A DNA stretch of 64,000 nucleotides from sequence record NC_041906.1; one strand, 5' to 3'. The translations under genes were made by a program, and so were the position numbers. A model generated the notes under the pieces. That model was not told the origin of the DNA. It was given only the letters and a program-made list of their open reading frames with translations, and did not search any database. Source of the stretch: Escherichia phage EC1-UPM. This document shows, piece after piece, positions 1 to 44,600 of this stretch; the stretch's first letter is position 1; each line of letters opens with the position of its first letter.

Positions 1-133
1 ATTTTTGCATATGAAAAGTAGCATAGTTATGTATGGCTATAGTGCTACACCTAGGGCTACACCCTTACACTCAACCATCCCCCCCGGTATGTTGACGGTG
101 TAGCCACTACCCTACCCCACCTTACACATTACA

Positions 134-146
134 CATGCTCCGCATG
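134..146 (+). promoter_or_regulatory. Hairpin promoter candidate (virion-RNAP early promoter type), copy 1
   Basis: CATGC-TCC-GCATG: 5-bp stem, 3-nt loop TCC, 44 nt upstream of ORF 190; same loop and architecture as copies at 753, 1025, 4540. Confidence 0.4.
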
Positions 147-189
147 TTATGGACATGTCGTCCTATCATCAACTATTGGAGCTATCATC

Positions 190-513
190 ATGACTACTAC
201 CGCTACTGTACGTATGACCGCAGGAACTTTACTTGGTACTGTTAACTCAGCTGCTACTACTGTTGCAGATACATTCAGCACAGCAACTAAAGCAGTAGGT
301 ATGCTTAATTCATATGTTAGTACGATGGCAGAGAAACAAGCCATTCGTACTAAATTAGAAATGCATACCTTTGTTAACAAATTAGCTGAAGAAACAGCTA
401 TGACTGAGACTCTGCGTAAGAAAAGCATCGAGGAATTCTGCAAGGATTCTGAGAACGCTCGTATCTATAACGCAGAATATTCCAAAGTCATTGACATCCT
501 GACTAAAGAATAA
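190..513 (+). CDS. hypothetical early protein (107 aa)
   Basis: ORF with GGAG RBS ~10 nt upstream; followed by intrinsic terminator. Confidence 0.5.
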   Translation: MTTTATVRMTAGTLLGTVNSAATTVADTFSTATKAVGMLNSYVSTMAEKQAIRTKLEMHTFVNKLAEETAMTETLRKKSIEEFCKDSENARIYNAEYSKVIDILTKE

Positions 514-521
514 ATCCTCAA

Positions 522-548
522 GGAGACTCTTCGGAGTCTCCTGTTTTG
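522..548 (+). terminator. rho-independent terminator
   Basis: GGAGACTC-TTCG-GAGTCTCC stem-loop followed by TGTTTTG. Confidence 0.6.
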
Positions 549-600
549 AACATTAGATAGTTCAACTATTCTGCATAAAAAGTTAAAAGAGATTCCTACT

Positions 601-747
601 ATGAGCAAACTAGAAAACGCATTTATCTTAACTGTTTGTGTACTTGCAGTTGTTGTGATGGTTTCCGTTCACATTGGAAAACCTCTGGTAAACACTGACT
701 ATGGTAATGGTCAGAAAGTAAAATCCATCTTGCTAATGGATAAGTAA
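601..747 (+). CDS. small hydrophobic protein (48 aa), below ORF-track cutoff
   Basis: ATG at 601, stop TAA 745-747; hydrophobic core ILTVCVLAVVVMVSV; my own translation. Confidence 0.3.
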   Translation: MSKLENAFILTVCVLAVVVMVSVHIGKPLVNTDYGNGQKVKSILLMDK

Positions 748-752
748 AAACA

Positions 753-769
753 AAGCTGTTCCACAGCTT
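753..769 (+). promoter_or_regulatory. Hairpin promoter candidate, copy 2
   Basis: AAGCTGT-TCC-ACAGCTT: 7-bp stem, 3-nt loop, 33 nt upstream of ORF 802. Confidence 0.4.
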
Positions 770-801
770 ACGGATACATTTCAACCAATTAAGGAGCATC
801 C

Positions 802-1017
802 ATGAACGTAGAGAATATCCGTATGATTGAGAATTGCTTTAGCAATAAACCTGTAGACCTCAGCAATGCAAGAAGGTCTACAGATAAAGAGTATGGAGAG
901 TTCCTCTCCTTACGCGATGAATACCGTATGCAAGGGCATGTTGAATTACATGCCTATCTGCATAACTCAGGCTTCTTCATGGATAAACTTGAAGCTGAAA
1001 CAGGTTGTCCATTCTGA
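802..1017 (+). CDS. hypothetical early protein (71 aa)
   Basis: ORF with AAGGAG RBS. Confidence 0.5.
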   Translation: MNVENIRMIENCFSNKPVDLSNARRSTDKEYGEFLSLRDEYRMQGHVELHAYLHNSGFFMDKLEAETGCPF

Positions 1018-1024
1018 AAACCAG

Positions 1025-1039
1025 GGCTGCTCCGCAGCC
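1025..1039 (+). promoter_or_regulatory. Hairpin promoter candidate, copy 3
   Basis: GGCTGC-TCC-GCAGCC: 6-bp stem, 3-nt loop, upstream of ORF 1145. Confidence 0.4.
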
Positions 1040-1144
1040 TTTGGATGATTTATGCATCCACTAATCATTGAACTTTTATCCTTTTGTTTGGGTGTTCTCA
1101 CCGACGAGTTCACCCGTAAATCACATAAATCTGGAGAGTACAAA

Positions 1145-1525
1145 ATGGCTATTCAAAAATTCACTTTCGGTCAATCTAACGCTGCTGCTTCTACTGCTAA
1201 AACTGACAAACCAAAAGCTCAGTTCTGGCTGAACATTGGTTATGTAGCTAATGAAGGCTCTGATGATGAGAAATTCATCTCACTGCCTACTGGTATCCCA
1301 CTGGATACTCAGGAGCCGCTGCCTACTAATAGCAGCAATGCTGACTTCCGTGCTATGCGTTGTGCACAGAACGACTTGCTGGAACAGTTAATCCAATATG
1401 CTCAGAACCTGGAACCAGGTGAGGAAGGTATCATTAACCTGCAAGTTCAGCTAAGACGCGTGAAAGCAGAGGCTGCTGACATCCCAGCAGACGAGAATAA
1501 ATATGCTCGTAAACTGACTTTCTAA
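1145..1525 (+). CDS. hypothetical early protein (126 aa; internal ATG of ORF 1052..1525)
   Basis: ATG at 1145 preceded by GGAGAG RBS; followed by terminator. Confidence 0.5.
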
Positions 1526-1534
1526 TCAACCACT

Positions 1535-1564
1535 AGACTCCCTTCGGGGAGTCTTTTATTTTTA
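1535..1564 (+). terminator. rho-independent terminator
   Basis: AGACTCCC-TTCG-GGGAGTCT followed by TTTATTTTTT. Confidence 0.65.
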
Positions 1565-1665
1565 ATTAGACGATAAGCTATTTCTACTTTTTGAGTATCT
1601 TTAGACGAAGGGTACTGAAACAGTAACCAGATAGATATAGATTTATATTAGAAGAGGAATTAACC

Positions 1666-1854
1666 ATGTTAGACTTCATCGCTTTCTGTGTAATATTCTA
1701 CTTTCTGGGTTGGAAGTTACGTCATAAATGGTTGCTTATTGCTAAGCTGCCATTCGTTACTATCGAGTGTCTCATTGCTAGTGTTAAACACAAGAAAGCA
1801 ATGACTCAGTACTACAAGCAACAAGCAGAAGAGTTTGCAAAGAGGAACCAGTGA
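1666..1854 (+). CDS. small membrane protein (62 aa)
   Basis: ORF with N-terminal hydrophobic segment FIAFCVIFYFLGW; AGAGGA RBS. Confidence 0.45.
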   Translation: MLDFIAFCVIFYFLGWKLRHKWLLIAKLPFVTIECLIASVKHKKAMTQYYKQQAEEFAKRNQ

Positions 1855-2039
1855 TATTCACTAACATAGAAGATGCTATTGAAGAATGTATCTTTCGTAG
1901 GTATCACACTGGTGTACAGAAACGACACTATGGTGTTGTACAGCTCAATGGTTATCAAATGGTTGTAAGAATTGTACGTAACAATAAACCTTTTAACTTT
2001 ATGTGGAGTACTAAATCATGCGTAAATCACTTATTTTAG
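1851..2039 (+). CDS. hypothetical protein (62 aa); alternative model 2017..2147 (43 aa) in another frame
   Basis: ORF overlapping previous stop; ambiguous with the short ORF that ends just before terminator at 2151. Confidence 0.3.
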   Translation: MIFTNIEDAIEECIFRRYHTGVQKRHYGVVQLNGYQMVVRIVRNNKPFNFMWSTKSCVNHLF

Positions 2040-2150
2040 GTAATAAATCTGACGTACAGAAGATGAAAGAGCGTCTGGCTGCTAAGAAACAGACATCTGA
2101 ACCAGTACGTAAGATTGTTACCTTCAACCACCCATGTATCAAATAACTAG

Positions 2151-2183
2151 GAGTCCTCCATTGGGGGGACTTCTATTTTTTAT
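2151..2183 (+). terminator. rho-independent terminator
   Basis: GAGTCC..GGACTT stem, loop ATTGG, followed by TCTATTTTTT. Confidence 0.55.
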
Positions 2184-2224
2184 TCTTGAATAGTTAGATA
2201 TGTATTTAAACAGGAGAAATAACC

Positions 2225-2542
2225 TTGAATGAAATTGTTTGTATACTTCCTCATTCAGCTAAGATAGCTGACAGGAACATACGTATCCACTTACCATTCC
2301 CATTAAGTAATCCATTTGCTCGTAATGAAAGAACCACAGTAGAAGATATAGAGGTAGCTTATGAGGCTTACCTTCGTAATCGTCTTATTAGTGGTGACAA
2401 GTTAATTACAGCAGAGATGGAAAGGATTGCATCCTTTGTAACAGATAGTACAGGTAAGCCTGTTGGCTTAATTGGTACTGAATCTGATGTGAATGTTATT
2501 CGTAAAATATTAATGGAGGCACTAAGTGAACAACCTCAGTGA
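2225..2542 (+). CDS. hypothetical protein (105 aa, TTG start)
   Basis: ORF with AGGAG RBS 9 nt upstream of TTG. Confidence 0.4.
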   Translation: MNEIVCILPHSAKIADRNIRIHLPFPLSNPFARNERTTVEDIEVAYEAYLRNRLISGDKLITAEMERIASFVTDSTGKPVGLIGTESDVNVIRKILMEALSEQPQ

Positions 2543-2759
2543 TGTAATTGTAGGTAATGAGATATTCGTTGACCAAAAAGGCTATGCCCGAATTAAACTA
2601 AAGGGTAATAACAGAACTATTGTTCGTAAGGTGTACTCTAAACCTTTTAGCAATTTCTCTATTGATGAAGTACGTATTAATAACAAGATGTACTTCATAG
2701 ATAGTAAAGTATCTGTATGCCATACAGATGGTAAAACCTCTCTTGAATATACTTACTAA
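2526..2759 (+). CDS. hypothetical protein (77 aa, GTG start)
   Basis: ORF with GGAGG RBS. Confidence 0.4.
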   Translation: MNNLSDVIVGNEIFVDQKGYARIKLKGNNRTIVRKVYSKPFSNFSIDEVRINNKMYFIDSKVSVCHTDGKTSLEYTY

Positions 2760-2771
2760 GGAGTAAGCAAA

Positions 2772-2993
2772 ATGCTGTTCAGCACTAATTATGGTATTTG
2801 CCCGATTTGCAATAAAGGAAGAGGAGTTGCCAATCATAAGAAGTGTAGTCGTATCCTACAGAAACGACGGAACCAGAAGGAATGGGATAAGATATTGGAA
2901 AACCAACACAAAGATGAGTTCAAGGAGACAGCTGTTAAAGCATCTACTCAGCTCATTCGTCGTACTAACTTCATAGAAGGTTATCAGAAATGA
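2772..2993 (+). CDS. hypothetical protein with CxxC pair (73 aa)
   Basis: CPIC...KKC cysteines; RBS GGAG. Confidence 0.4.
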   Translation: MLFSTNYGICPICNKGRGVANHKKCSRILQKRRNQKEWDKILENQHKDEFKETAVKASTQLIRRTNFIEGYQK

Positions 2994-3346
2994 AACTAAT
3001 AGTAGCTGGTGGCAGAGACTTCGTAAATACCCAAGTAATGATTACAGTATTAATGGATTTAGTGGAGAAGGGTAAGATTGACCCTAATCCAGAATTAGTA
3101 TGTGGTATGGCTCGTGGAGCAGATATGCTTGCATATAGCCTATGGGCTAATAACAAAATGCCTATTCATAATTTCCCAGCAAACTGGGATAAGTATGGAA
3201 AATCCGCTGGTTATAGACGTAATCAGGAAATGGGTGAATTTGCAGATGCTGCTGTATGTTTCTGGGATGGTAAATCCAAAGGAACCAAGCACATGATTGA
3301 TATCATGAATAGGCTTAATAAACCTGTATATGTTGTGAGGTACTAA
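2990..3346 (+). CDS. SLOG-family (DUF2493/YspA-like) protein
   Basis: KLIVAGGRDF ... GMARGADMLAYSLWA ... ANWDKYGKSAGYRRNQEM resembles recalled SLOG/DUF2493 signature. Confidence 0.5.
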   Translation: MKLIVAGGRDFVNTQVMITVLMDLVEKGKIDPNPELVCGMARGADMLAYSLWANNKMPIHNFPANWDKYGKSAGYRRNQEMGEFADAAVCFWDGKSKGTKHMIDIMNRLNKPVYVVRY

Positions 3347-3601
3347 ATGATTATTACGTATCCTACAGGCAAGAATGTGGAATATATGGGACATACCATC
3401 CAAGTGCCTCACTGGGTTAAGTATATAGCGTTATATACTCGTCAATATAAGAGTGCTAATACCTCGTTAATAGGATTCTCTAAGAAGCCTAAACTAACAG
3501 AAAACAATATCTGGGTATCCTCTGGGAGACAAGAAGAGATTGGTTTTTGTGATTTGAGTATTGTCGATAATAACATTTATGGGACATTGAGAAAGGTATG
3601 A
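3347..3601 (+). CDS. hypothetical protein (84 aa)
   Basis: ORF, GAGGT RBS. Confidence 0.4.
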   Translation: MIITYPTGKNVEYMGHTIQVPHWVKYIALYTRQYKSANTSLIGFSKKPKLTENNIWVSSGRQEEIGFCDLSIVDNNIYGTLRKV

Positions 3602-3918
3602 AAACTATTCTAGTAGTTCATGATTCTACATTTACTGATGTAGATAAGATGATGCGTAATATTGATTATGTATCTCAGACAAGCCAGGCATTCAATGAAG
3701 AGTTTACTCTGTACTGTAATGCTGAATCACCATTAGTTCCTATCCTTAAGGAATCAGGTCTGCCATTCTCTACAGAGAACTTCCCGGAAGAACCAGACTA
3801 TGTAATCTCATTTATCTATGACTTACATGATGGTTCTGAAACTAGTGAATTAGCTATGAACCAGTGGCGTAGTAAACGTCCTGTGTTCGCATTCCAGGTA
3901 CTTAAACCAAAGGATTAA
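3598..3918 (+). CDS. hypothetical protein (106 aa)
   Basis: ORF overlapping upstream stop. Confidence 0.45.
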   Translation: MKTILVVHDSTFTDVDKMMRNIDYVSQTSQAFNEEFTLYCNAESPLVPILKESGLPFSTENFPEEPDYVISFIYDLHDGSETSELAMNQWRSKRPVFAFQVLKPKD

Positions 3919-3920
3919 TC

Positions 3921-4271
3921 ATGAAAGAAATCTTAGTATTCACTACCAATGTACTTGGACAACATACTAATGCTGCTGCCAAGTTAGCTTATAAGAAGCA
4001 TGGTGCTCGCTGGGGTATGGCCTATGGTCATTATGGTAATAGCTTTGCCATTCCGGTAAGGGATGGTAGTGGTGACCGAATCAAAGAGGGTGCTATTTAT
4101 GGCTTCATTGAGGGTTTTATTGCTTATGCATCTGTTAATCCACAATGGGATTTCAAAGTAATGAGAATGGACTTTATGGACCCATACCTGTTCTTCAATG
4201 TTACGGGCAACGTACTGTTACCGGAAGCATGGCGTAAATACTTAGGAAATGCTTACAACTATTGGAGTTAA
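3921..4271 (+). CDS. hypothetical protein (116 aa)
   Basis: ORF, AAGGA RBS. Confidence 0.45.
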   Translation: MKEILVFTTNVLGQHTNAAAKLAYKKHGARWGMAYGHYGNSFAIPVRDGSGDRIKEGAIYGFIEGFIAYASVNPQWDFKVMRMDFMDPYLFFNVTGNVLLPEAWRKYLGNAYNYWS

Positions 4272-4273
4272 TA

Positions 4274-4534
4274 ATGACTTATGAAGAATTATGGTCTGCT
4301 CAAGTCAGAGCCAGAGCACTCACACGACACGATATCTATTGTGCATTACAGAATGAATTAAAGAGCCGTACTAAACTAGGTTACATATCCGGCTTAATTA
4401 AAATACCTATGACTAGCCTAGTCTGGCCTTATCAGAAGAAAAGTAATGAGTTTAATGGCAATGGTCTGCATGTACGTATCGACTACATCGGTAATGAAAA
4501 TAGTATTCGTATTACCTTTTGGACTAAGCGTTAG
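4274..4534 (+). CDS. hypothetical protein (86 aa; ATG inside ORF 4262..4534)
   Basis: ATG at 4274 with GGAG RBS 7 nt upstream. Confidence 0.45.
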   Translation: MTYEELWSAQVRARALTRHDIYCALQNELKSRTKLGYISGLIKIPMTSLVWPYQKKSNEFNGNGLHVRIDYIGNENSIRITFWTKR

Positions 4535-4539
4535 GTAAT

Positions 4540-4554
4540 AGCTGCTCCGCAGCT
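4540..4554 (+). promoter_or_regulatory. Hairpin promoter candidate, copy 4 (upstream of RNAP II genes)
   Basis: AGCTGC-TCC-GCAGCT followed by TTTGG, as in copy 3; 34 nt upstream of ORF 4588. Confidence 0.4.
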
Positions 4555-4587
4555 TTTGGTTATTAATCACATTTAGGAGAATAAGCG

Positions 4588-5406
4588 ATGTACTCATCTA
4601 TTGAACATCAGAAGCAACTCGAAAAACTATTCAATAAAAATCAGCTCTTGTCTCGCATGAGGAAGGAATTCGAGGACTCCGAAGAAATTGACTTTAAGGC
4701 ATTCGCTGCCTATTTGGAAATTGATTATAAGCTGCTCATTGATGCAATGGTGCAGATTGCCCTACATAAACGTGCTGACATTCAGACTATGATTGGCTCC
4801 CTCATGAGCCACTCAGATGATGCTCAGTACATCGCTGACTGTCTGTATAAGATGGCAGAGAATGACTGCTTCAACTATGACCCTACCATCGACAAGTTCG
4901 GTGTTATCTATGAGATTAGTGAAGATGTTCAAATGGAACTGGAAGCATTCCAATACCCATTGCCTATCGTAAGTGCTCCTAAGCCTGTTAAGTGTAACCG
5001 TGATACTGGCTACTACGAGAGCAGAGGAAGCATCATCCTCAAGAAGAACCATCATGAGATGGATGTCTGTCTTGACCACATCAACCGTATGAACAATCAA
5101 CGTCTCAGCATTAACTGGGACGTTGCTAACTATGTAAAAGACTCACGTCCTAACATGGATAAACCCAAAGAAGGTGAGACCCGTCAGGACTATGAGAAAC
5201 GTGTTAAAGCCTTTGAGAAGTACAGTCGTACTGCTAAGGAAGTAATGGAGTTAGTAACTAAAGAAGGTAATAACTTCTCACTGGCTCACAAATACGACAA
5301 ACGTGGGCGTACATATGCCTGTGGCTACCACATTCAATATCAGGGAACCAGCTACAACAAAGCTGTTGTAGAATTTGCTGATAAAGAATTAGTAAACGAA
5401 GATTAA
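4588..5406 (+). CDS. phage RNA polymerase II small subunit (N4 gp15-like)
   Basis: 272 aa ORF immediately upstream of the catalytic T7-like RNAP subunit; position matches N4 gp15/gp16 pair. Confidence 0.65.
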   Translation: MYSSIEHQKQLEKLFNKNQLLSRMRKEFEDSEEIDFKAFAAYLEIDYKLLIDAMVQIALHKRADIQTMIGSLMSHSDDAQYIADCLYKMAENDCFNYDPTIDKFGVIYEISEDVQMELEAFQYPLPIVSAPKPVKCNRDTGYYESRGSIILKKNHHEMDVCLDHINRMNNQRLSINWDVANYVKDSRPNMDKPKEGETRQDYEKRVKAFEKYSRTAKEVMELVTKEGNNFSLAHKYDKRGRTYACGYHIQYQGTSYNKAVVEFADKELVNED

Positions 5407-5462
5407 TCATACAATAAGCAGGCTCTCCATAGTGGGGAGCCAAGAAGCAAAAGGAACATAAA

Positions 5463-6680
5463 ATGCAACTTTTAACAGCAGCTCAGTACCTGAAAGTAGA
5501 TATCGCGAACTCATATGGCTTAGATAAAAAGACATGGGATGAACGTATTGCTTGGTTCGATGAGAACGAAGCTAACCTGCTTAATCTGGTAGATGAAGCT
5601 GAAGATTCTGCTCTGTTCTTTGCAGGTGTAAACGCATGGAAAGATATGAAAGCAGGTAAGCCTATTGGTTATGCTGTAGCATTGGATGCTACATCATCAG
5701 GCTTGCAGTTACTGGCCTGTCTGACTGGTGACCGTTCTGCTGCTGAACTGTGTAACGTAGTTAACTACATGGGTGAGAATGGTAAGCCATTACGTCGTGA
5801 TGCTTATACAGTTATCTATCACAAGATGCTGGACATCCTTGGTGAAGCATCACGTATTAAACGTAGTGACACTAAGCAGGCAGTTATGACTGCATTCTAC
5901 GGCTCAGAAGCCAAGCCTAAAGAAGTATTCGGTGAAGGTATTCGTCTCAAGACTTTTGAGAATGTAATGGAAACTGTTGCTAGTGGTCCTTGGGCACTTA
6001 ACAAGTTCTTACTGCAATGTGGTAATCCTGATGCCAACCGTTACATATGGGTACTTCCTGATAACTTCCACGCTGTCATTAAGGTCATGGTTCCTGAAGT
6101 ACAGACCATTAACTTCTTAGGTAAACCATTCGACATCACTCGTATGGTTCAAGGTACTGAAGAGAAGACCCGTATGCTCTCTGCTAACATCACCCACTCT
6201 ATTGATGGAATGGTGGTACGTGAGATGCTGCGTCGTTGTAACTTCAACAGTGACTTAGTGGAAGCTGTGCGAGAACTCTGCGATGAAGGTCCATCAGAAT
6301 ATGGGGAGATTGCAGGTAATCTGGAGAAGGTACAAGAGCTATGGAGCCATTATGAGAAATCTGGCTTCTTATCCGTATCAATCCTGGATTATCTTGACCC
6401 ATGTACTATTGCTTATGTAGACCGTCAGGTAATAGCAGATATGATTGACTCTATGCCTAAGAAGCCATTCCCTGTAATAACTGTACATGACTGCTTCCGT
6501 TGCCATCCTAACTACGGTAATGACCTGCGTCGTCAGTACAATCAGATTTTGTCTGACATTGCTAAGAGTGACCTGCTGGGATTCATCCTGTCTCAGGTGC
6601 TGGGACAAGAGTTCTCTGCTGGTAAACTGGATGACAGCCTCTGGCAGGACATTCTTGAAACAGACTATGCGTTGAGTTAA
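5463..6680 (+). CDS. phage RNA polymerase II catalytic subunit (T7-like single-subunit RNAP, N4 gp16-like)
   Basis: Motif A DATSSGLQ, motif B RSDTKQAVMTAFYGSE, motif C VHDCF, all T7-RNAP-like. Confidence 0.8.
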   Translation: MQLLTAAQYLKVDIANSYGLDKKTWDERIAWFDENEANLLNLVDEAEDSALFFAGVNAWKDMKAGKPIGYAVALDATSSGLQLLACLTGDRSAAELCNVVNYMGENGKPLRRDAYTVIYHKMLDILGEASRIKRSDTKQAVMTAFYGSEAKPKEVFGEGIRLKTFENVMETVASGPWALNKFLLQCGNPDANRYIWVLPDNFHAVIKVMVPEVQTINFLGKPFDITRMVQGTEEKTRMLSANITHSIDGMVVREMLRRCNFNSDLVEAVRELCDEGPSEYGEIAGNLEKVQELWSHYEKSGFLSVSILDYLDPCTIAYVDRQVIADMIDSMPKKPFPVITVHDCFRCHPNYGNDLRRQYNQILSDIAKSDLLGFILSQVLGQEFSAGKLDDSLWQDILETDYALS

Positions 6681-6686
6681 TAAACT

Positions 6687-6721
6687 AGCCTCATTCCTTC
6701 GGGAGTGAGGCTTTATTTTTT
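6687..6721 (+). terminator. rho-independent terminator
   Basis: AGCCTCATTCC-TTCG-GGAGTGAGGCT followed by TTTATTTTTT. Confidence 0.6.
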
Positions 6722-6738
6722 GCTTGGAGGTAACAACT

Positions 6739-6921
6739 ATGCTAATCCCTTTTGAAGTAATCTCTCAGCTAATACTGATAGTTTTATCTGTACTGGTTCT
6801 GTCTACAATCGTTCATGCCCATAAATCTAAGTTTGCTTGCTACTGTTATGGAGCATACTCACTAGGCTGCTTTGTAATAGCAGGATGGATAGCTTTTGCT
6901 ATCTACTGTGTAAACATCTAA
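6739..6921 (+). CDS. small membrane protein (60 aa)
   Basis: ATG with GGAGG RBS; two hydrophobic segments. Confidence 0.4.
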   Translation: MLIPFEVISQLILIVLSVLVLSTIVHAHKSKFACYCYGAYSLGCFVIAGWIAFAIYCVNI

Positions 6922-6948
6922 CCATCCTTTAGGAGGGTTTATTTTTTT
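6920..6948 (+). terminator. rho-independent terminator (imperfect stem)
   Basis: AACCATCC-TTTA-GGAGGGTT followed by TATTTTTTT. Confidence 0.45.
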
Positions 6949-6995
6949 GTCTGTCATGTATACTAATCCTGCTATTTACTTATGAGGAAATTGAT

Positions 6996-7829
6996 ATGCC
7001 AACTTTGAAAGTAGGTTTTAACAAAACCACTAATGTTGCAACTGTACTGGATGCAGGTGGTTCTATCCCAGGTGGTTCCGTAGAAGTAGGTACTTTTGTA
7101 CACCCAGATGCCACTTATCCGGATAGTTTGGTTATCTTCCATGGTGTTCGTGACCTGCTGTATAAACGTTCTGCTAAAGACCCATCTAAAGCAGGCTTCT
7201 GGCCTAACAACATCGTGGATATGCAGTCCATCTCTATTGATATGAAAGCTACTCCACGACTAACTATTGCTACCAAACTGCCTCGTGTAGCCTCTGCTAT
7301 CGAAGGTGAAGACATCAACTGGCACGTTGATGTAGCAGGTGGCAAAGCACCATTTACTTATAAATGGCAATTCAAAGCTAAAACCGCTGGTGCAGTATTC
7401 ACTGATATTGATTCAGGTGATAACGCATCTGCTATTACTGCAACATTGACCCTTAATGACGTAACGGCTGCTTCTGCTGGTACTTATAAAGTAATTGTTA
7501 CTGATGCTAATGGAACCACGGTAGAAGATGAGTCGTTGTTGGCTGTAGGCTACTATGAAGCAAGCTCACTGGTAGCTACCCCTGCTTCACTGGCTCTGTC
7601 TGTTGCTGCCGATACTACTGATGGTAAGAATGTAACAATTGCTGCTATGCCTGTTGGTTCTTCTTCTGGTGCTTTGTCTATCAAGACTGCTCCAGAATCT
7701 GGACGTGCTACGACTACCATTGCCGGTAACGTACTGACGGTTAAACCAGTAGCTGCTGGTGATGCTACTTCTGTAGTAGTTACCAACGGTAAGGTCGATG
7801 TAACCATCCCTGTTACTGTTGCAGAATAA
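6996..7829 (+). CDS. Ig-like domain protein, probable capsid decoration protein (N4 gp17-like)
   Basis: T/S/A/V-rich beta-strand repeats (YKVIVTDANGTTV, VTVKPVAAGDATSVVV) typical of Ig-like domains; sits just after RNAP II genes as gp17 does in N4. Confidence 0.55.
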   Translation: MPTLKVGFNKTTNVATVLDAGGSIPGGSVEVGTFVHPDATYPDSLVIFHGVRDLLYKRSAKDPSKAGFWPNNIVDMQSISIDMKATPRLTIATKLPRVASAIEGEDINWHVDVAGGKAPFTYKWQFKAKTAGAVFTDIDSGDNASAITATLTLNDVTAASAGTYKVIVTDANGTTVEDESLLAVGYYEASSLVATPASLALSVAADTTDGKNVTIAAMPVGSSSGALSIKTAPESGRATTTIAGNVLTVKPVAAGDATSVVVTNGKVDVTIPVTVAE

Positions 7830-7879
7830 GGGTATCCTTTGTTTGGGGTTATAAACCCTGAAATAAAACTCCCAAGTTT

Positions 7880-7909
7880 GACCTCCCTATTGAAGGGAGG
7901 TCTTTTTTT
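7880..7909 (+). terminator. rho-independent terminator
   Basis: GACCTCCC..GGGAGGTC stem followed by TTTTTTT then GGTTT. Confidence 0.65.
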
Positions 7910-7934
7910 GGTTTAAAACTTATGGAGCCAGGAA

Positions 7935-8123
7935 ATGTATAAAGAAATTGCATTCTTCTCATTCTTACTTGGTGGTTTATTAGGTGCAGGAATTGTAGCT
8001 ATTTCTAATACCTACTTTGGTTCTACTCCAAACTCTGTAACACAAACCCTCAAGCATGAATGTGAACTTAATATCCCTCGTAATCAAAACTGTGTAATGC
8101 AGTTCGTACCGGAGAAGAAATGA
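7935..8123 (+). CDS. small membrane protein (62 aa)
   Basis: N-terminal TM segment FFSFLLGGLLGAGIVAI; GGAG RBS. Confidence 0.4.
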   Translation: MYKEIAFFSFLLGGLLGAGIVAISNTYFGSTPNSVTQTLKHECELNIPRNQNCVMQFVPEKK

Positions 8124-8380
8124 ATATTCATAATCTACGTTTGGTTGAAAAATTGTATGAAGAGTACAACGACAGCCGACAGCAATTAGCTAGTTTAAAG
8201 AAGTCACCCCATATGGTGAGGGTATCTTTCAATGGTACGGATTTAGGACCGCAAGCCCGTACAAAAATACTTCCCGAACTACTGTCATTTTATCAAAAGA
8301 GGATTGCTATCTTAGAGAAACGCTTTGAGCATTTAGGTGTAAATTTATCGCCACTTCCCGATGAAGGAGAAGATGAATGA
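8120..8380 (+). CDS. hypothetical protein (86 aa)
   Basis: ORF, ATGA overlap with upstream gene. Confidence 0.4.
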   Translation: MNIHNLRLVEKLYEEYNDSRQQLASLKKSPHMVRVSFNGTDLGPQARTKILPELLSFYQKRIAILEKRFEHLGVNLSPLPDEGEDE

Positions 8381-8586
8381 AAGTAACAAATCGTTATGAA
8401 AACAATGAAGTAACTTTCGGTGATGTGGAACCCGCTAATGGTTTTATTTATAACCAGACAGTGTGTTTAAAGATTCACTTACCTGAAGGTAAACCTGCTG
8501 CTGTTGCTGTAGAAACTGGTAAATCATTCTATCTATCAGCAAATACATTTGTAACGCCAATAAACCTGGAAGGATATTACCTTTGA
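8377..8586 (+). CDS. hypothetical protein (69 aa)
   Basis: ORF, overlap-coupled. Confidence 0.4.
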   Translation: MKVTNRYENNEVTFGDVEPANGFIYNQTVCLKIHLPEGKPAAVAVETGKSFYLSANTFVTPINLEGYYL

Positions 8587-8768
8587 AATTAACTCAGTCC
8601 CAAGCAATCTTCCTTCGCATGGTTCAAGGTGGTTCTGCCACCAGCAACCGTAATAACAAAACCGCACAGTCTCTTAAGAAGCTGGGCTTAGTGCAGTTCA
8701 ATACTGGTCTTGGGTGGTCATTAACCCCTATCGGTGTACTTCAACTCAATGAAATGAAAGGTAACTGA
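8583..8768 (+). CDS. hypothetical protein (61 aa, TTG start)
   Basis: ORF overlap-coupled; non-ATG start. Confidence 0.3.
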   Translation: MKLTQSQAIFLRMVQGGSATSNRNNKTAQSLKKLGLVQFNTGLGWSLTPIGVLQLNEMKGN

Positions 8769-9098
8769 ATGAAAGCTTTACTTAAAAGTATTGCAGTAGC
8801 TGCACTGATAGCTTTGGTTCCAAATGCACAAGCAGTTAAACCAGAACCAATTCTGGAAGGTGCTCAGGCTTATCTGGATGACACCCGTGATGCGTTCGGA
8901 CAAGGATTCTTCATGGGTAGTATGATCTCTTACATCGAGAACACTAATAACTGTGTTCCAGATGGTATGAAGTATTCAGACATTCTACCTAAGATTGCCA
9001 AAGTAGTTATTTATGACTCTGCAATCCTCAAATTGAAGAATACATCCCAAATTGTTGTGTACTCAGTACACAAGGCATATCCCTGCACCAAATCTTAA
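8769..9098 (+). CDS. secreted/periplasmic small protein (109 aa)
   Basis: Signal-peptide-like N-terminus MKALLKSIAVAALIALVPNAQA; two Cys in mature part. Confidence 0.45.
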   Translation: MKALLKSIAVAALIALVPNAQAVKPEPILEGAQAYLDDTRDAFGQGFFMGSMISYIENTNNCVPDGMKYSDILPKIAKVVIYDSAILKLKNTSQIVVYSVHKAYPCTKS

Positions 9099-20776: not shown

Positions 20777-22087
20777 ATGTTTTCCAAACCTACCAAAGCC
20801 CCGCTGAACAAGGGGCAAGAAGCGGTTGCGAAGGAGTTCTTCGACTTCCTGCTCAACCCTAATGCTACCGAATTCAATATTAGTGGCCCAGGGGGAACTG
20901 GCAAGACATTCCTGATGTCGCACCTCATTGATGACACTATGCCTGCATATATGGAAACTTGCTCTCTCATGGGAACCAAGCCTCTGTATAACGAGGTTGT
21001 TATGACTGCGACCACGAACAAAGCTGCTGAAGTTCTGGCTCAAGCTACTGGGCGTCCAACATCTACCTATCATTCCTTCCAGGGATTGATTGTTAAGAAT
21101 GATTTTAAGACTGGTGAGGCTAATGTCGTACCGTCTAAATCATTCAATATTAAGAAGAACAAAATCATCTTCGTAGATGAAGCATCCATGATAGACCGTC
21201 AGTTGCTTAAGTATGCCCGTGAAGGTACTCACCAGTGCAAACTGGTATTCGTAGGTGATGCTTCTCAGCTTCTGCCTGTTAAAGAGAATAAGTCTCCAGT
21301 GTATGCAGGTAATATCCCAACACACTATCTGACTGAACAGATGCGTACCGATGCACCGGAACTCAAAGCATTGCACCAGCAATTGCGTGATACGGTGGAA
21401 GGTAAGACAGGCTTCCTGCCTATTAAATGTATTCCAGGTATCATTGACTGGGTACAAGGGGAGGAGATGGAGAAACTGGTTCTCAGTCACTTCACTCAAC
21501 CTACCAATAGCCGTATTGTTGCCTACACGAATGACCAGGTTATTAATTACAATAACTACATTCGTGAAGCCAATGGTTACGTAGGTGAGTACTCCATTGG
21601 TGAGCAGCTAGTGTCTAACTCTGCTGTTCGCTTAGGGGTGGAAGACCGTCTGTCTATCGAGCAGGACGTAAAACTCATCGACCAGGATAGTAGTACTCGC
21701 ATGATTCCAGTTACGGGTGACCTGGAACTGGAAGTTCGTGATAGTACTCTGGACCTTGGTTATGGTGGTATTGTAAGTGAAGTTCCAGTACCTACTGACC
21801 CAGACTACTTCAACCGTTTGGTTAAGTGGTTAGGAAAGGAAAAGAACTGGGAACCTTACTTCCGTCTTAAAGAAACCATTCCAGACCTGCGTGCTACCCA
21901 TGCATGTACTGTCCATAAATCACAAGGCTCTACTTACGACACAATCTTCATTGATGCAGATGACCTCTCAAGCTGTCGCCAACCAGATATGGTTGCCCGT
22001 CTGCTTTACGTCGCTGTGTCCCGTGCACGTAAGCGAGTAGTGTTCTATGGCAATCTTGCCAGTAAGTATGGTGGTCTAACTTTCTAA
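20777..22087 (+). CDS. DNA helicase (SF1, RecD/Pif1-like; N4 gp37-like)
   Basis: Walker A GPGGTGKTF; motif VHKSQGSTYD. Confidence 0.75.
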   Translation: MFSKPTKAPLNKGQEAVAKEFFDFLLNPNATEFNISGPGGTGKTFLMSHLIDDTMPAYMETCSLMGTKPLYNEVVMTATTNKAAEVLAQATGRPTSTYHSFQGLIVKNDFKTGEANVVPSKSFNIKKNKIIFVDEASMIDRQLLKYAREGTHQCKLVFVGDASQLLPVKENKSPVYAGNIPTHYLTEQMRTDAPELKALHQQLRDTVEGKTGFLPIKCIPGIIDWVQGEEMEKLVLSHFTQPTNSRIVAYTNDQVINYNNYIREANGYVGEYSIGEQLVSNSAVRLGVEDRLSIEQDVKLIDQDSSTRMIPVTGDLELEVRDSTLDLGYGGIVSEVPVPTDPDYFNRLVKWLGKEKNWEPYFRLKETIPDLRATHACTVHKSQGSTYDTIFIDADDLSSCRQPDMVARLLYVAVSRARKRVVFYGNLASKYGGLTF

Positions 22088-38600: not shown

Positions 38601-41600
38601 GCGACCTTGAGCATCAAACTCAATGTTGTTAGCACCCATAATGGTATCGAACTTCTGCTGTGCATAATAACGGTCAGCAGGGTTAGTACTATCTGGGTCA
38701 GCCATGAATGCTTCGACGGTCAGGTTCTTAGTAACGTGTGTATAGTATTCCTGTGCACGAGCCATGGCAGCAGGATTAATAGCAGCCTCGGTAGCGAGTG
38801 CAGCAACAATGTTAGTGAAGAGACGTTGTTCCTGCATGTTCATGGTGAAGCCATGAGCCTGAACATCACGAGTTACTTTGGTTGCATTCACTACTGCATC
38901 AGAGAACTTACCTTTACGAATTACTTGCTGTACTGGTTCCGAACCAATGTAGTCAGTAATCAGTTTATCAAAGGTTTTCCCTAACTCTTCCAGACGAGTA
39001 TTGTTACCGTATGCTTTGTTATGGAACAGAGTAGTGTCTTTAGCTACAGCAGCAGTAGGAGCTTGTCCACGCATTACTACAGCAGAGTTAAACAGTAAAC
39101 CTGAGAACATATCATCTGCATTAGCAGGAGCTTTCTTACGACCAAATACCAGACGTTTGATTGCCTCATATACAGCCTGAACCATAGCCTTAAGTGCAGT
39201 GGTTTTCTTCTGCTTACTAATCAATTCTCGGTTGGTTAAACCCCAGGCCATGTACTCGTTCAATGCAGCAGCTTTAGCCATTGCTGGTTCAATGAAGCCA
39301 TTAGACAAGTGACCATTAATGGTATTAAGTGCATCAGCATATGCTTCACGTACTGCCGGAGATTCATCCTTAACATCCAGAGTACGGAACTGGTTCATCA
39401 GGTCTTCAATGTTCTGGACTGCTTCATTAGGAGTACCCTCGTAGTGAGCCAGTACAGATTCAAAAGTAGAAGCATGTACCAATTCATGAACCAGAGTCTC
39501 TAAGGAAGGGGTAACTAAGTAGATGGTTTTATCTTCAAAGTTAGTCCAGCCATATGCATTACCAGCTTCAGCAGCTTCAATATCTTCCGGTGCTGGGCGA
39601 GTAATATTCTTCTCAATGGCGTAGGCATCCAGTTGAGCAGGTGTACCGTAAACAACTTTATAGTCTTTAGCAGCAAGGGATTTCTGTATTTCTTTCAATA
39701 CTGCTTGCTGTTCAGGAGACATCTCTTTAGCCAGTTTAGTAATGGCAGTATTAGACAGTAGACGTACACCAGATTTCAGTACACGACCAACCATCTCCAT
39801 AGCAGGTACTTCAACCACTGGCACTTCCTTCACTGGTTCTACCTTCGTTGGTTCCGCTTTAGTAGCACGTACTGCTTCACGACGCTTGTTTAGTTCAGCA
39901 TCAAACAGTTCGTTCAGCTTAGCTACTTGCTGGTCTACAGTAAGACCTTCCAAAGAAATTTTACCGTTGTTCACATAAGGAGCGCCTACAGCAGCCATCT
40001 GGTCAACAGTGACCTGTACCTGGTCCATTACCTTGTGACGAATATCTACACCCAAAGCAATGTTACGCAGATTACGCTCAATCAATGCAATACCAGAATC
40101 TCTAATCATAGAAATTTTATAATCTCTATCACCATCTACTCTGGCAATATGAGCACGTTGCTCAAAGTCTAAAGCAGACTTCGCAATAGCATCTATTGCT
40201 GCATCGGATAACTTATTTAAATCAACATTCTTAGCAAACTTAGAGAAAGACTCATATACATTCTTGATAGGGTTACCCTGCCAGGAAATATATACAGCCT
40301 CATTAGCTTTACGGCTTGCATCAGTAATGTCATTGATACCAATGTTCATACCATCAAAGATTTTCAGGGTATTCTTCGGAGCACCTTTCATAGTAGAAAG
40401 GGTCTGCATCATCATGCCATCACCAGTACCGATGGTCATAAATGGAATACCTGCTACACCTGCCTGCGAAGGAGCATAGATGCTCATTGGCACACGCATA
40501 CGGTCATCTAAGTTGGTAGCCAGTACCTGGTTAGCAACATCAGTGTTTTCACTGCCAGCAATGTAGAAAGTCTGTGAGCCAGTCTTAATCATTGGAGCCA
40601 GAGGAGCTAAGCTATTCTGAATTTCATTCAGTTCTTTCTGTGTTAAGAAATCACCCTTCTTCCATGTTGGGTCTTTTTCTTTTTCTGCCAGCTTAGCCTG
40701 TACTGCTTGTTGGAACATATCCTGCAATACCAGAGATTGAATCTGAGTAGCCTTCTGCAAATTCTCAGTAGAGTGCATCAACCCCTCACCAACAGTGAAC
40801 CGGATACCTTGTCTCATTGGCTCAACAAAGAAGTGCAGCATATTCTCTTGTAAGTTCTTCAGAGAATCCCCGGATACGGTAAACCCCTGGGGATTTAACT
40901 CACCAGTCAGAACACCATCTACTTCCTTAATAAATAACCTACCTTTGCGTTTGGCTGGAATTTTGCCAGTCAATGCTTCCATAGAAGTAAGGAAGGTATC
41001 CAGCATAGCCTGAGCATCAGCCTCAGACGCAGCCTCCTTACCAAACATCGCCATAGCCGGAGAAATGCTAGGGTCAGCAGCACGTGCTTTCAGAACATCG
41101 CTTAGGCGTTCATAAATGGAATCAGTAATTGCACTTACCATTTTGCCAGCAATACCACGAGCACCAGAACCATAGATGGTAATGGTCAGTGGGTTTTTGG
41201 CGATACCACGTTTCAGGTCCAGAGTACCATCTTCATTCAAGTTAAAATCTTTGATGAACAAATCCATTAACTTCTGGAGATGGTCTATCTGGTTTATAAC
41301 AGAAATATCCTTACTATAAGCATTGCGTAATTCATTTAGATAGAATTGCAGACTATTAGTAGATGCTTCATACAGGTCAACATCGTCTTCCTGAGTATGA
41401 TGCTCATTCATAGTCTTACCAGCTTTACCAAAGAACAAACCACCTTTAGCAGTATTCTTAATCCAGTTTGAAGTGAACTTACCTCCAGTCATTAATACCA
41501 TTGCGTTGATTGGACCGTTGGTTACACCATCAGCTTCAACGTACAAAGGAGTATTAAAGTTGGCACGGTCATCACTGTTCAGGTAACGGGCATATTCCAT

Positions 41601-44600
41601 AAGAGCCATGAGAGCTACAAAGGATTTATCATTACCAAGAGATGTTCTCAGGATATCCACTGCATCAGTTGGTAAGTATCCAGACTTATCAAACTCAACC
41701 ATCATATCTACAGCAGGCTTCAGCTTACCTTCCAGAGCTTTGGTAAGTTCTTCTGACATAGTTTCACGGGTCATTTTATGAACTTTGATACCCAATGCCT
41801 GAGCCAGTCCAAGCTGGAAGCCTGAAAAATCTTCGTTGTTCTGGTTCGATAAATCCAGGGTAGCTTTGGTAGGTAAGATAGCCTCACGAACCAGCTTAGC
41901 TGATTGGGGGGTATATTTACCTAACATCTGCATACGACCAACACGGGTCATATTGTAAGCATAGTGGATAGGTACAGAAGAAATGTCTTTACTCTGTGCT
42001 CTTACCTGTTCAATAACAGAGAACAATTGGTTATAAGAGTCTTCTACTGAACGGTTCTTACCTTCCAGCGATTTAGCGTGGTTCTCGTTAAGTAATTCTT
42101 TATTCAGAGTACCAGCACCCATCAGTTCGAGGATACGGTCTTTACCTAATGCCTCATAGAACTGAACCATTGGGGTATGTACAAAGAACTCTGTATCCTG
42201 TTCTGCTTTAAGAGCAGCTTTCTGTTCTGGAGTATTACGAACAGCAGGGTTACGTAACTGTGTATGAGCCACGGAAGGAATATCATCACCCAGATACAAT
42301 TTCTCTGCTGGTTCTAAGAGTACAGCCTCCTCGATAGCAGTAGGATAATTATTAATTGCATCATTATCTTCTAACTTATCAATGGTATACAGACCAATCG
42401 TCTTATTGGATTCTGGGTCAATCTCAGACACATCCAGCATAGACTCTTTAACTTCACCCATCTCAATGAAAGAAGACAGAATCTCTGTAGCCATTGCCAC
42501 TGGGATACCCTTGGTATAACCAAGTGGTGCATCGGCATTACGGTTAAGCCCCCAGTAAGACTCAATCTTTTGAGCCAGTGAGTTAGTAGCTTCAACCAGG
42601 GTCTGAGCATTCTCGAAGTCAGCCAGAATACCTTCTGGTAACAAAGACTCATTTACACCAGTAATAGCAGCTACGTCTTTCATGTCTTTAATGGCAGCAT
42701 TCTGTGTAGCAGTAAGTCGCCATTGCAGACCAGCAAGTACAGCAGTCTCTAACAACTGGTCATTGAACTTAAAGGTATCACCATCTTTTTCTACGATGTT
42801 AAGTAACTTACCACCCACCCAACGGTTAGCCTCAGTCCCTTCTGCAAAACGTTTACCAACGTTCTTGTTAGCAAGGAACTTAGCCAGACGGTCAGACAGG
42901 GTAGTCTTCAGAGTTTCACCGAAATCAAATAAGTCCTGATAACGCTTAATCACATCACTTGTGAGAGCGTTATTTTCTTTTTGAGTGAATGCTTCAAAGC
43001 GAGCAACGGAAGACAATGCTTTCTTAACATCAGTCAAAGGAGACTCGGAACCAATGGTACGAGACTTAGGTTCTTCTGGTAGAGAAAATGCTTTAAGGAA
43101 CTGGTTCGGTGTCTTGTCATTGTTATAGACAGGGAACACTGTTTCCATTTGAGATAGAGGTTTACCACCAACGGTATAGTCTGCTTTCAGTTGAGCCAGA
43201 GATACTTCTTCCTTCTCAACGTTATTAGTGTTACGCCCAGACGTATCTACACCAACCTGAATCAGTGCATTGTTTGCTTCTACAAATGATTGAACAGTAT
43301 TAAATTGTTCAGGAGTTAGTTTCTGATTATCAAATAGTTGTAAAGATACAAATGGTTGTTCACTGCCTTTGTAGAAGGTAGAGCGAATAGCACCAGTATC
43401 TAGTGACATATCTCGATAACCATCGTGTCCAAATACATCAGACAGACTGATGTGGTCGCCATTGGAACCAACAACAGTACCATCAGCAAATAACCATGGA
43501 CTCTCCCTACGATCACCATACTTATTAAGAGTATCTTGAGAAATGGTATTCTCTTTTACATAAGCATCCTGTTCAGATTCAGTAGGTTGCTCGATGGTAT
43601 CCTCATTAGTGAGGGTAGCATCCTGTTTTTCAGACTGATTCTCAGGTTCTTTTACAGGCTGTGGTTTAGACTCTTTAGTAGTGGGTTCTGTTTTAACAGC
43701 TTCACTAACAGAGGGTTTAGTCTGTACAGTAGGGGTAACTGGTTCCTGTTTTGTAACAGGAGTTTCATCAACCTGATTCACTGGTTCACTAGTCTGTTGG
43801 GATTGAGCAGCATCAAGATTGCCCTGACGGAACTCTTTAACTACCTGGGCAGCAGGCTTGTCTAGACGTGAATCCAATGGGGTAACTTTAACATGAGAAA
43901 CATTAAGCTCCGGGTAAGCCGTAGCAAGTGCGTTAGCAATATCAGCTACGGTCTTGGCTTCCAGTCCTACTTGCTGGGCAAACTTAACCGACTTGGTATC
44001 ATACGGATTGACACCGAGGCCAGTACGACTACGTACCCATTCACGCGAAGGAGTAAGAGCCTGATAATGGACAGACTTATTCTTATCCGCATTCCCAGAA
44101 ATCAGATGCTCATTCAACGCTCCGACCTTATTCTGCATGTGCTGGGCGAACTTCATAAAGTCGTCGAGATAAGCGGAAGCCAAATCGAAGTTACCAGAGT
44201 TGTACGCAGAACGAATGCGTTTAGCATGTTGCAACGCAGAGTACTGGCCTTCATTAGAACGAGACTCGTCGGTTTTAATTTGTTTACTAACAATGTCCTG
44301 AGGACGTAAGCCTAGTTCTTCTGCTTTAGCGTCAAATTCTCGTGCTCCTTGCAATAGAGCAGCAGCAGATTGCAGGGCAGCACGCTGACGATTCCCTAGC
44401 GTAATCTTACCTTCACTTGCATGTTTCAGAACCATGTTCACTGAGTCTGCATCCAGTACTTCTGGAGACATATCAGCAGCCATAGCAATGTTGTTTGCCT
44501 GGGCTTGGTTAGCTTCTTCAGTAGCCTTCAGTTTACCTGCTTCAGCCTGTTCCTGAATCATGGAATGAATAGCACGGAATGCACGGAGTACCTTCGGTGT

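Follow-up and report, generated by a model that had tools for sequence, protein, structure and literature searches.

Four small hairpins lie at the left end of the genome of Escherichia phage EC1-UPM, within a stretch of 64,000 nucleotides of sequence record NC_041906.1 that we analyzed as a whole (hereafter the window; position 1 is its first letter). A first-pass annotation, made from the letters alone, had proposed these hairpins as candidate promoters for the virion-encapsidated RNA polymerase (vRNAP) known from coliphage N4. The first 6 kb of the window matched 81 phage records at 88-94% identity, comprising G7C-like coliphages, Shigella phages and Klebsiella relatives, and by these matches the window is that of a G7C-like coliphage (Gamaleyavirus, Enquatrovirinae, Schitoviridae). 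The hairpins and the genes that follow them are listed here in genome order; +1 denotes the predicted transcription start, ORF an open reading frame, and RNAPII the heterodimeric RNA polymerase II of the phage.

133-147, + strand: P1 hairpin ACATGC-TCC-GCATGT, perfect 6-bp stem, loop 139-141, predicted +1 G151; precedes the gp1 homolog
190-513, + strand: gp1 homolog, 65% identity to N4 gp1
753-769, + strand: extra hairpin AAGCTGT-TCC-ACAGCTT, perfect 7-bp stem, loop 760-762, predicted +1 G772; precedes the 71-aa ORF
802-1017, + strand: 71-aa ORF, phrog_20790, no assigned function
1025-1039, + strand: P2-type hairpin GGCTGC-TCC-GCAGCC, perfect 6-bp stem, loop 1031-1033, predicted +1 G1043; precedes the gp2 homolog
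1052/1145-1525, + strand: gp2 homolog (RNAPII cofactor), 68% identity to N4 gp2
4540-4554, + strand: P3-type hairpin AGCTGC-TCC-GCAGCT, perfect 6-bp stem, loop 4546-4548, predicted +1 G4558; precedes the RNAPII subunit genes
4588-5406 and 5463-6680, + strand: two subunits of an N4-like RNAPII, gp15/gp16 homologs

Measured from hairpin to predicted +1, the putative promoters extend over 133..151, 753..772, 1025..1043 and 4540..4558, all on the + strand. The first-pass annotation had described hairpins with an identical TCC loop upstream of early ORFs, the RNAPII genes among them, and both points were borne out: all four hairpins are present, and 4588-5406 and 5463-6680 encode RNAPII subunits. 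Its coordinates were right for the hairpins at 753, 1025 and 4540, whereas the first had been given as a 5-bp core at 134-146 and is in full a 6-bp hairpin at 133-147. From the end of the hairpin to the next start codon there are 43 nt (ATG 190), 33 nt (ATG 802) and 34 nt (ATG 4588); behind hairpin 1025, a conserved ATG at 1052 follows after 13 nt and an ATG at 1145, preceded by a Shine-Dalgarno sequence, after 106 nt.

All four hairpins are intergenic and confined to the left-end early region (133-4554). Perfect hairpins whose loop has 3 nt and whose stem has 5 bp or more number 106 in the window; of these, only the four carry a TCC loop on the + strand, and on the - strand the counterpart is a single 5-bp case at 21725-21737. 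In each of the four, the pair adjoining the loop-closing pair is G...C, and a GG lies 12-13 nt past the first loop base. Expected counts were obtained per strand from 300 dinucleotide-preserving shuffles. If only a TCC loop and 5 or more stem pairs are demanded, the four observed sites compare with 0.89 expected and are weakly above chance (3 of 300 shuffles get to four); demanding 6 or more stem pairs lowers the expectation to 0.20, and adding GG at the fixed spacing lowers it to 0.013, none of the 300 shuffles getting to four in either case. A search of both strands of the window with the relaxed core G[CT]-T[CT]C-[GA]C returned no additional site with a stem. The candidates that had to be rejected were a look-alike at 55300 on the + strand (4-bp stem and wrong base at -8), the TCC-loop hairpin at 21725-21737 on the - strand (T:A closing pair, GG absent), and TTC-loop hairpins at 901, 22758 and 40623, which have neither the G-C/G-C core nor the GG. 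The first-pass annotation had named recurrence of the motif at similar density in coding regions as a result that would speak against its proposal; no such recurrence was seen, the rest of the window being free of the motif on both strands. Folded as DNA, the template strand adopted exactly the expected hairpin at each of the four sites (-4.7 to -7.3 kcal/mol), and an Rfam scan of 1-7000 gave no matches, as expected of DNA-level signals.

In N4, vRNAP recognizes the template bases -11A/G, -10G, -8G and +1C, the four bases preceding +1 serve as a ruler only, and a G:C loop-closing pair together with the 3'A and 5'G of the loop is needed for extrusion and stability (PMC4496689). The register of the window sites could be fixed from the template oligonucleotide used for cryo-electron microscopy of N4 P2, 5'-...GCC-AAAA-GAAGC-GGA-GCTTC-3' (PMC13492108), because it places the non-template TCC at -12 to -10, the 3' arm from -9 onwards and +1 at the first G of the GG. 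In this register, template -12A, -11G, -10G, -8G and +1C are present at all four window sites. The non-template TCC corresponds to a GGA template loop with a central purine at every site, the non-template base at -8 is C in 4/4 window sites and in 32/32 promoters of the wider alignment described below, and GG stands at +12/+13 from the first loop base with the same constancy (4/4 and 32/32), a spacing that agrees with the N4 P2 oligonucleotide. The loop-closing pair is C:G at 133, 1025 and 4540 and T:A at 753, the aligned set dividing into 29/32 C:G and 3/32 T:A.

The window also encodes an enzyme that would read such sites:

35685-46523, - strand: virion RNA polymerase gene (N4 gp50 homolog), matching Protein Data Bank chains of N4 vRNAP over near full length

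Its product shares 68% identity with N4 gp50 over the whole protein and 72% over the polymerase domain. We converted positions to mini-vRNAP numbering (residue n is gp50 residue 997+n), a conversion that recovers every expected N4 residue. The promoter-contact residues K114, R119, W129, K268, K849, K850, D901 and R904 are kept, as are the catalytic D559 and D951; the sole change among the promoter-contact residues compared is the replacement of K267 by N. In N4, K267 is one of two intercalating-hairpin lysines that melt the base of long promoter stems. With the determinants present at all sites and the contact residues conserved, enzyme and signal fit each other.

We scanned the N4 genome for TCC hairpins in the same way as the window and also inspected its left end directly. 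AAGAAGC-TCC-GCTTCTT followed by ttGG lies at 557-573, immediately 5' of gp2; AAGCTGC-TCC-GCAGCTT, again followed by ttGG, lies at 4546-4562, immediately 5' of gp15; and GTTGC-TTC-GCAAC followed by ttatGGACATGT lies at 90-102, 5' of gp1. The flanks are homologous as well, N4 "ttatGGACATGTTGTCC" corresponding to "tatGGACATGTCGTCC" in the window at P1 and N4 "GGATGAAGTAATGCATCC" to "GGATGATTTATGCATCC" at P2, while the P1 stems of N4 and the window differ by compensatory changes. In an alignment of the region 5' of gp15 from N4, the window and five relatives, conservation sets in at the hairpin, the sequence further upstream being diverged. Since position and flanking homology both agree with N4, 133 was assigned to P1, 1025 to P2 and 4540 to P3, and on these two grounds the three hairpins are positional and sequence orthologs of the N4 promoters. 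N4 P1, P2 and P3 are experimentally mapped sites of vRNAP initiation (PMC4496689; PMC13492108), and we regard it as almost certain that their three orthologs in the window belong to a vRNAP early-promoter set. Hairpin 753 is without an N4 counterpart; the segment in which it lies, about 430 bp that N4 lacks, is situated between the terminator of gp1 and P2 and carries the ORFs 601-747 and 802-1017.

For a wider comparison we scanned 14 loci: N4, eight IMG/VR relatives, Klebsiella phage JZBo1, Jgk1, SP5M, JWAlpha and Ea9-2. A search with a single RNAPII subunit had yielded the eight close relatives, and the more distant genomes came from tblastn matches. The first-pass annotation had suggested a motif search in N4-like genomes, and every Enquatrovirinae genome scanned has such hairpins on the early-gene strand with GG at +1/+2, those with a full early region having 3 to 6 each. 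The stems encountered were ACATGC, GTTGC, AGACGC, GACGC, AGAAGC, AAGATGC, GGCTGC, AGCTGC, AGGTGC, GGTGC, AAAGCAGC and GCTGT. An ungapped alignment of 32 distinct promoters from the 14 loci was examined over a 7-bp helix. Five of the seven stem pairs show changes on both sides, foremost -16/-6 (17 sequences) and -15/-7 (11 sequences). Doubly changed cells numbered 35, against 11.0 +/- 2.3 in shuffles and at most 10 in slid controls; the covariation score of 0.471 exceeded both that of shuffles (0.156) and that obtained with the partner column slid (0.111 or less). By contrast, the -14/-8 pair is invariant, and the loop and +1/+2 vary little or not at all. A comparison of orthologous sites, which is not circular, gave the same picture: a hairpin lies 5' of the gp15 homolog in 12/12 Enquatrovirinae loci with at least four core stems (GCTGC, GGTGC, AGGTGC, GCAGC), and it is likewise kept despite differing stems 5' of the gp1 and gp2 homologs. 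The consensus GCTGY-TCC-RCAGC put forward by the first-pass annotation fits three of the four window hairpins (three matches, none in 100 shuffles) and fails on the first, whose stem is CATGC/GCATG; its inclusion of a stem consensus in the signal had to be given up, as the stems covary freely and what is conserved is G-C/TCC/G-C plus GG at +1/+2. Judged from the alignment, this is the behaviour described for N4, in which the conserved bases are read and the remaining stem bases need only pair.

Three further observations on relatives deserve mention. G7C has at 503-515 (locus L006) the hairpin AACGC-TCC-GCGTT, with the full core and CG in place of GG at the expected start, which may be a decayed or atypical promoter copy. 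In the Achromobacter phage JWAlpha, the signature with a TCC or TTC loop occurs once, at 55-67 of locus L012, 5' of the gp1 homolog, and in the first 14.7 kb of the Erwinia phage Ea9-2 the TCC/TTC-loop signature was absent, other loop sequences not having been explored. Lineages outside Enquatrovirinae may use other loop sequences.

Combined, the orthology with N4 P1-P3, the presence of the vRNAP determinants at 4/4 sites and the conservation of the cognate vRNAP support the proposal that these are vRNAP promoters. We conclude from these sequence comparisons that the four hairpins very probably constitute the early-promoter set of an injected, virion-encapsidated vRNAP, as in coliphage N4.

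Several points weigh against this conclusion. The covariation set had been preselected for stems of at least 5 bp, so that the percentage of paired cells is partly circular; hairpin 753 has a T:A loop-closing pair (template -13A:-9T) instead of the canonical C:G; and the hairpins at 753, 1025 and 4540 start 6-8 nt past stop codons, two of them being followed by 3-4 T. Hairpin 4540 in particular is followed by TTTTGGTTATT, and a simple pattern scan calls it terminator-like on the + strand. The last observations would suit intrinsic terminators of the genes just upstream. However, P1 at 133 has no upstream gene to terminate, and terminator-like hairpins of a separate, stabler class are found nearby:

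521-548, + strand: terminator-like hairpin with UUCG loop and U run, after the gp1 homolog; closes the P1 unit
1535-1563, 2148-2182, 6687-6722 and 7880-7909: further terminator-like hairpins, mostly with UUCG tetraloops and then T runs

Those at 521-548, 1535-1563, 2148-2182 and 6687-6722 have stems of 8-12 bp, tetraloops (3/4 UUCG), long T runs and RNA folding energies of -14 to -19 kcal/mol, whereas the four TCC-hairpin regions reach -7 to -12 kcal/mol as RNA, the fold predicted for P1 not even being the TCC hairpin. An intrinsic terminator combines a stable GC-rich RNA hairpin with about five or more U; a T run is missing after 133 and 753, and it amounts to TTT after 1025 and to TTTT after 4540. 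Moreover, a terminator needs neither an invariant loop nor an invariant -8 base nor GG at a fixed distance, and the N4 orthologs are mapped initiation sites (PMC4496689). We therefore consider it highly improbable that the hairpins are terminators.

If the hairpins are promoters, they could in principle serve another polymerase, either RNAPII in middle transcription or the host sigma-70 enzyme. In the N4-like phage LUZ7, middle promoters are likewise GC-rich hairpins, yet for N4 RNAPII a preference for T starts is reported, along with recognition of two sequence motifs and not of such hairpins (PMC9163698). The window sites precede the genes for RNAPII and its cofactors, whose products must exist before RNAPII does. 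As for the host enzyme, none of the hairpins falls on a sigma-70-like promoter match, and positions 1-9000 contain fewer such matches than shuffled sequence does (9, where shuffles give 25.7 +/- 5.2). Base by base, the signature agrees with the determinants of N4 vRNAP, and we give promoters of either other kind next to no chance.

The T:A pair of hairpin 753 bears on a narrower question, namely whether the vRNAP set comprises four active sites or three. In N4, D901 contacts -9C, and both extrusion and stability reportedly depend on a G:C closing pair (PMC4496689); with T:A in its place, the 753 site could be weak or inactive. In that case only the other three sites would be active, 753 would be a decayed or very weak copy, and ORF 802-1017 would be transcribed by read-through from P1. 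All copies of the T:A variant share one core (GCTGT-TCC-ACAGC), so that the variant has no covariation of its own, as would suit such a copy. Against this, hairpin 753 keeps every polymerase-read base (-12A, -11G, -10G, -8G and +1C), has the longest stem of the four, perfect over 7 bp, and has a predicted stability similar to that of the other three (-5.6 kcal/mol as DNA). The strong gp1 terminator at 521-548 separates P1 from ORF 802-1017. The variant is also kept in several genomes and in two different upstream contexts: hairpin and ORF recur together in pSb-1, G7C and CU10EC, the element is present in 14 of the related records found by BLAST, and in CU10EC it follows the gp1 terminator immediately, the 48-aa ORF being absent there. 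Finally, St11Ph5 has the same ORF and leader (GGATACATTTCAACC...) behind a canonical GAAGC-TCC-GCTTC hairpin at equal distance, its homology to the window starting at the predicted +1 (772), which argues that the ORF needs a promoter of its own. We thus hold the 753 site to be probably active, possibly more weakly than the other three, and the reading of it as a decayed or very weak copy to be unlikely. Scanning IMG/VR for exact matches to the variant hairpin GCTGTTCCACAGCNNNNGG returned 77 stretches, only three of them with N4-like downstream sequence (pSb-1 once, G7C twice); the scan added nothing beyond BLAST, because 15 specified bases do not suffice in that collection.

The 753 promoter-plus-gene unit is present in only some relatives. 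Comparing window 590-1045 with 880-1190 of St11Ph5 (L093) and 940-1250 of CU10EC (L094), we observed that homology ends either at the hairpin (window 752) or at the predicted +1 (772). In different phages the sequence behind one and the same hairpin can be unrelated, and genomes differ in how many hairpins they have (3 to 6), which we also counted as evidence for an exchange of units. On this basis we put forward, as a tentative idea that may well prove wrong, that the hairpins act as junctions at which small early genes are swapped as promoter-plus-ORF units among G7C-like phages, with 753 as an active, T:A-closed vRNAP promoter. Such units would loosely resemble the promoter-stem-loop elements of T4-type phages. 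If this were true, an active 753 promoter would relax the closing-pair requirement defined in N4.

The early promoters of N4 are reportedly the subject of Glucksmann 1992, Dai & Rothman-Denes 1998, Davydova 2007 and Gleghorn 2008. The window sites resemble N4 P1-P3 in being template hairpins (stem 5-7 bp, loop 3 nt), in their -11 purine, -10G, -8G and +1C at equal spacing, and in lying at the far left of the genome, ahead of gp1, gp2 and gp15/16. Their 5'-GGA-3' template loop is that of N4 P2 and P3, and hairpin 4540 has the same core as N4 P3 (GCTGC-TCC-GCAGC); the contact residues of vRNAP are shared as well. Unlike N4, the window has four sites instead of three, stems that differ by compensatory changes, N at vRNAP residue 267, and the extra 753 site with its T:A loop-closing pair. 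Its P1 has a TCC loop and template -11G, whereas N4 P1 has a TTC loop (GAA on the template) and -11A.

Among relatives of N4, a close parallel is Klebsiella phage KP8, for which four putative hairpin promoters, P1-P4, were predicted from N4 similarity and not mapped (PMC6950046, Table 1). They share with the window the TCC loop, the ...GG start and the layout of ORF1, accessory ORF, gp2 analogue and RNAPII subunit, and KP8 P3 (GGGCTGCTCCGCAGCCTTTGGA) is the same sequence as window 1024-1045 (PMC6950046). The second KP8 promoter, unlike hairpin 753, is canonical (AAGACGC-TCC-GCGTCTT) and stands in a different context. In the Pseudomonas phage LUZ7, early starts were mapped by ONT-cappable-seq (Oxford Nanopore Technologies sequencing of capped transcripts) downstream of such hairpins, with a preference for G, and some of the nine early start sites are without hairpins (PMC9163698). 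Early hairpin promoters were also predicted by similarity in LIT1, LUZ7 and PEV2 (PMC3715699). As far as the descriptions go, these phages are like the window in having hairpins with a conserved 3-nt loop, an injected vRNAP and a preferred G start fixed at 13-14 nt past the hairpin centre; they belong to another Schitoviridae subfamily and have shorter stems (at least 4 bp). T7-type promoters are comparable in that a homologous polymerase reads them, likewise with an intercalating hairpin, a specificity loop and an upstream recognition element; they extend over about -17 to +1 and have a G start. Unlike T7 promoters, which are read as double-stranded sequence, vRNAP sites are read as extruded single-stranded hairpins and need supercoiling and the single-stranded DNA-binding protein, SSB (PMC4496689).

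Some observations concern the surrounding early region. The terminator class described above splits it into units, and terminator-like sites are enriched in 1-9000 (22 against 5.7 in shuffles). No hairpin promoter belongs to ORF 601-747 or to the block 1666-4534, whose transcription would depend on read-through. The gp2 homolog has a conserved N-terminal extension (window 1052-1144), which is in frame with the gene body in 11 relatives and shows in-frame indels; its ATG 1052 lies only 9 nt past the predicted +1, and no Shine-Dalgarno sequence precedes it. Because the second ATG, 1145, sits after a good Shine-Dalgarno sequence (GGAGAG), the gp2 homolog may be made as two isoforms. At the extreme left, many related records begin at a position matching window 51-55, where the deposited genomes have their left end; roughly the first 50 nt of the window are therefore probably permuted-record or terminal-repeat sequence. 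The G7C record has an annotated terminal repeat and contains the 753-type hairpin twice, one copy near each record end.

By analogy with N4 biochemistry, the four sites would work as follows. After injection, negative supercoiling by host gyrase would extrude the inverted repeat as a cruciform, and host SSB would melt the non-template hairpin, the template hairpin (5'-...G-C-GGA-G-C...-3') surviving. This hairpin would then be bound by vRNAP, which would contact -11G through W129 and R119, -10G through K114 and D901, and -8G through R904, and would start with GTP opposite the template C at a fixed spacing from the hairpin (in N4, 8 nt beyond -8). The units driven in this way would be the gp1 homolog, the 71-aa accessory ORF, the gp2 homolog and the two RNAPII subunits. 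The model predicts transcript 5' ends at G151, G772, G1043 and G4558; these exact ends, like extrusion and the dependence on SSB, are carried over from N4.

Hairpin promoters as such are already known, from the textbook N4 system, from predictions in many N4-like genomes and from the four listed for KP8. The promoters are not annotated as features in any GenBank record that we inspected, and for this reason the value of the present assignment is for annotation only. It would fix the early transcription units of the phage, with predicted starts at 151, 772, 1043 and 4558 and terminators at 521-548, 1535-1563, 2148-2182 and 6687-6722. What is mildly new is a conserved natural variant with a T:A-closed loop, together with signs of promoter-plus-gene exchange at the hairpins. 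For the G7C group, our results show that the promoter code of N4, with its GGA loop, -8G and +1C, applies without change.

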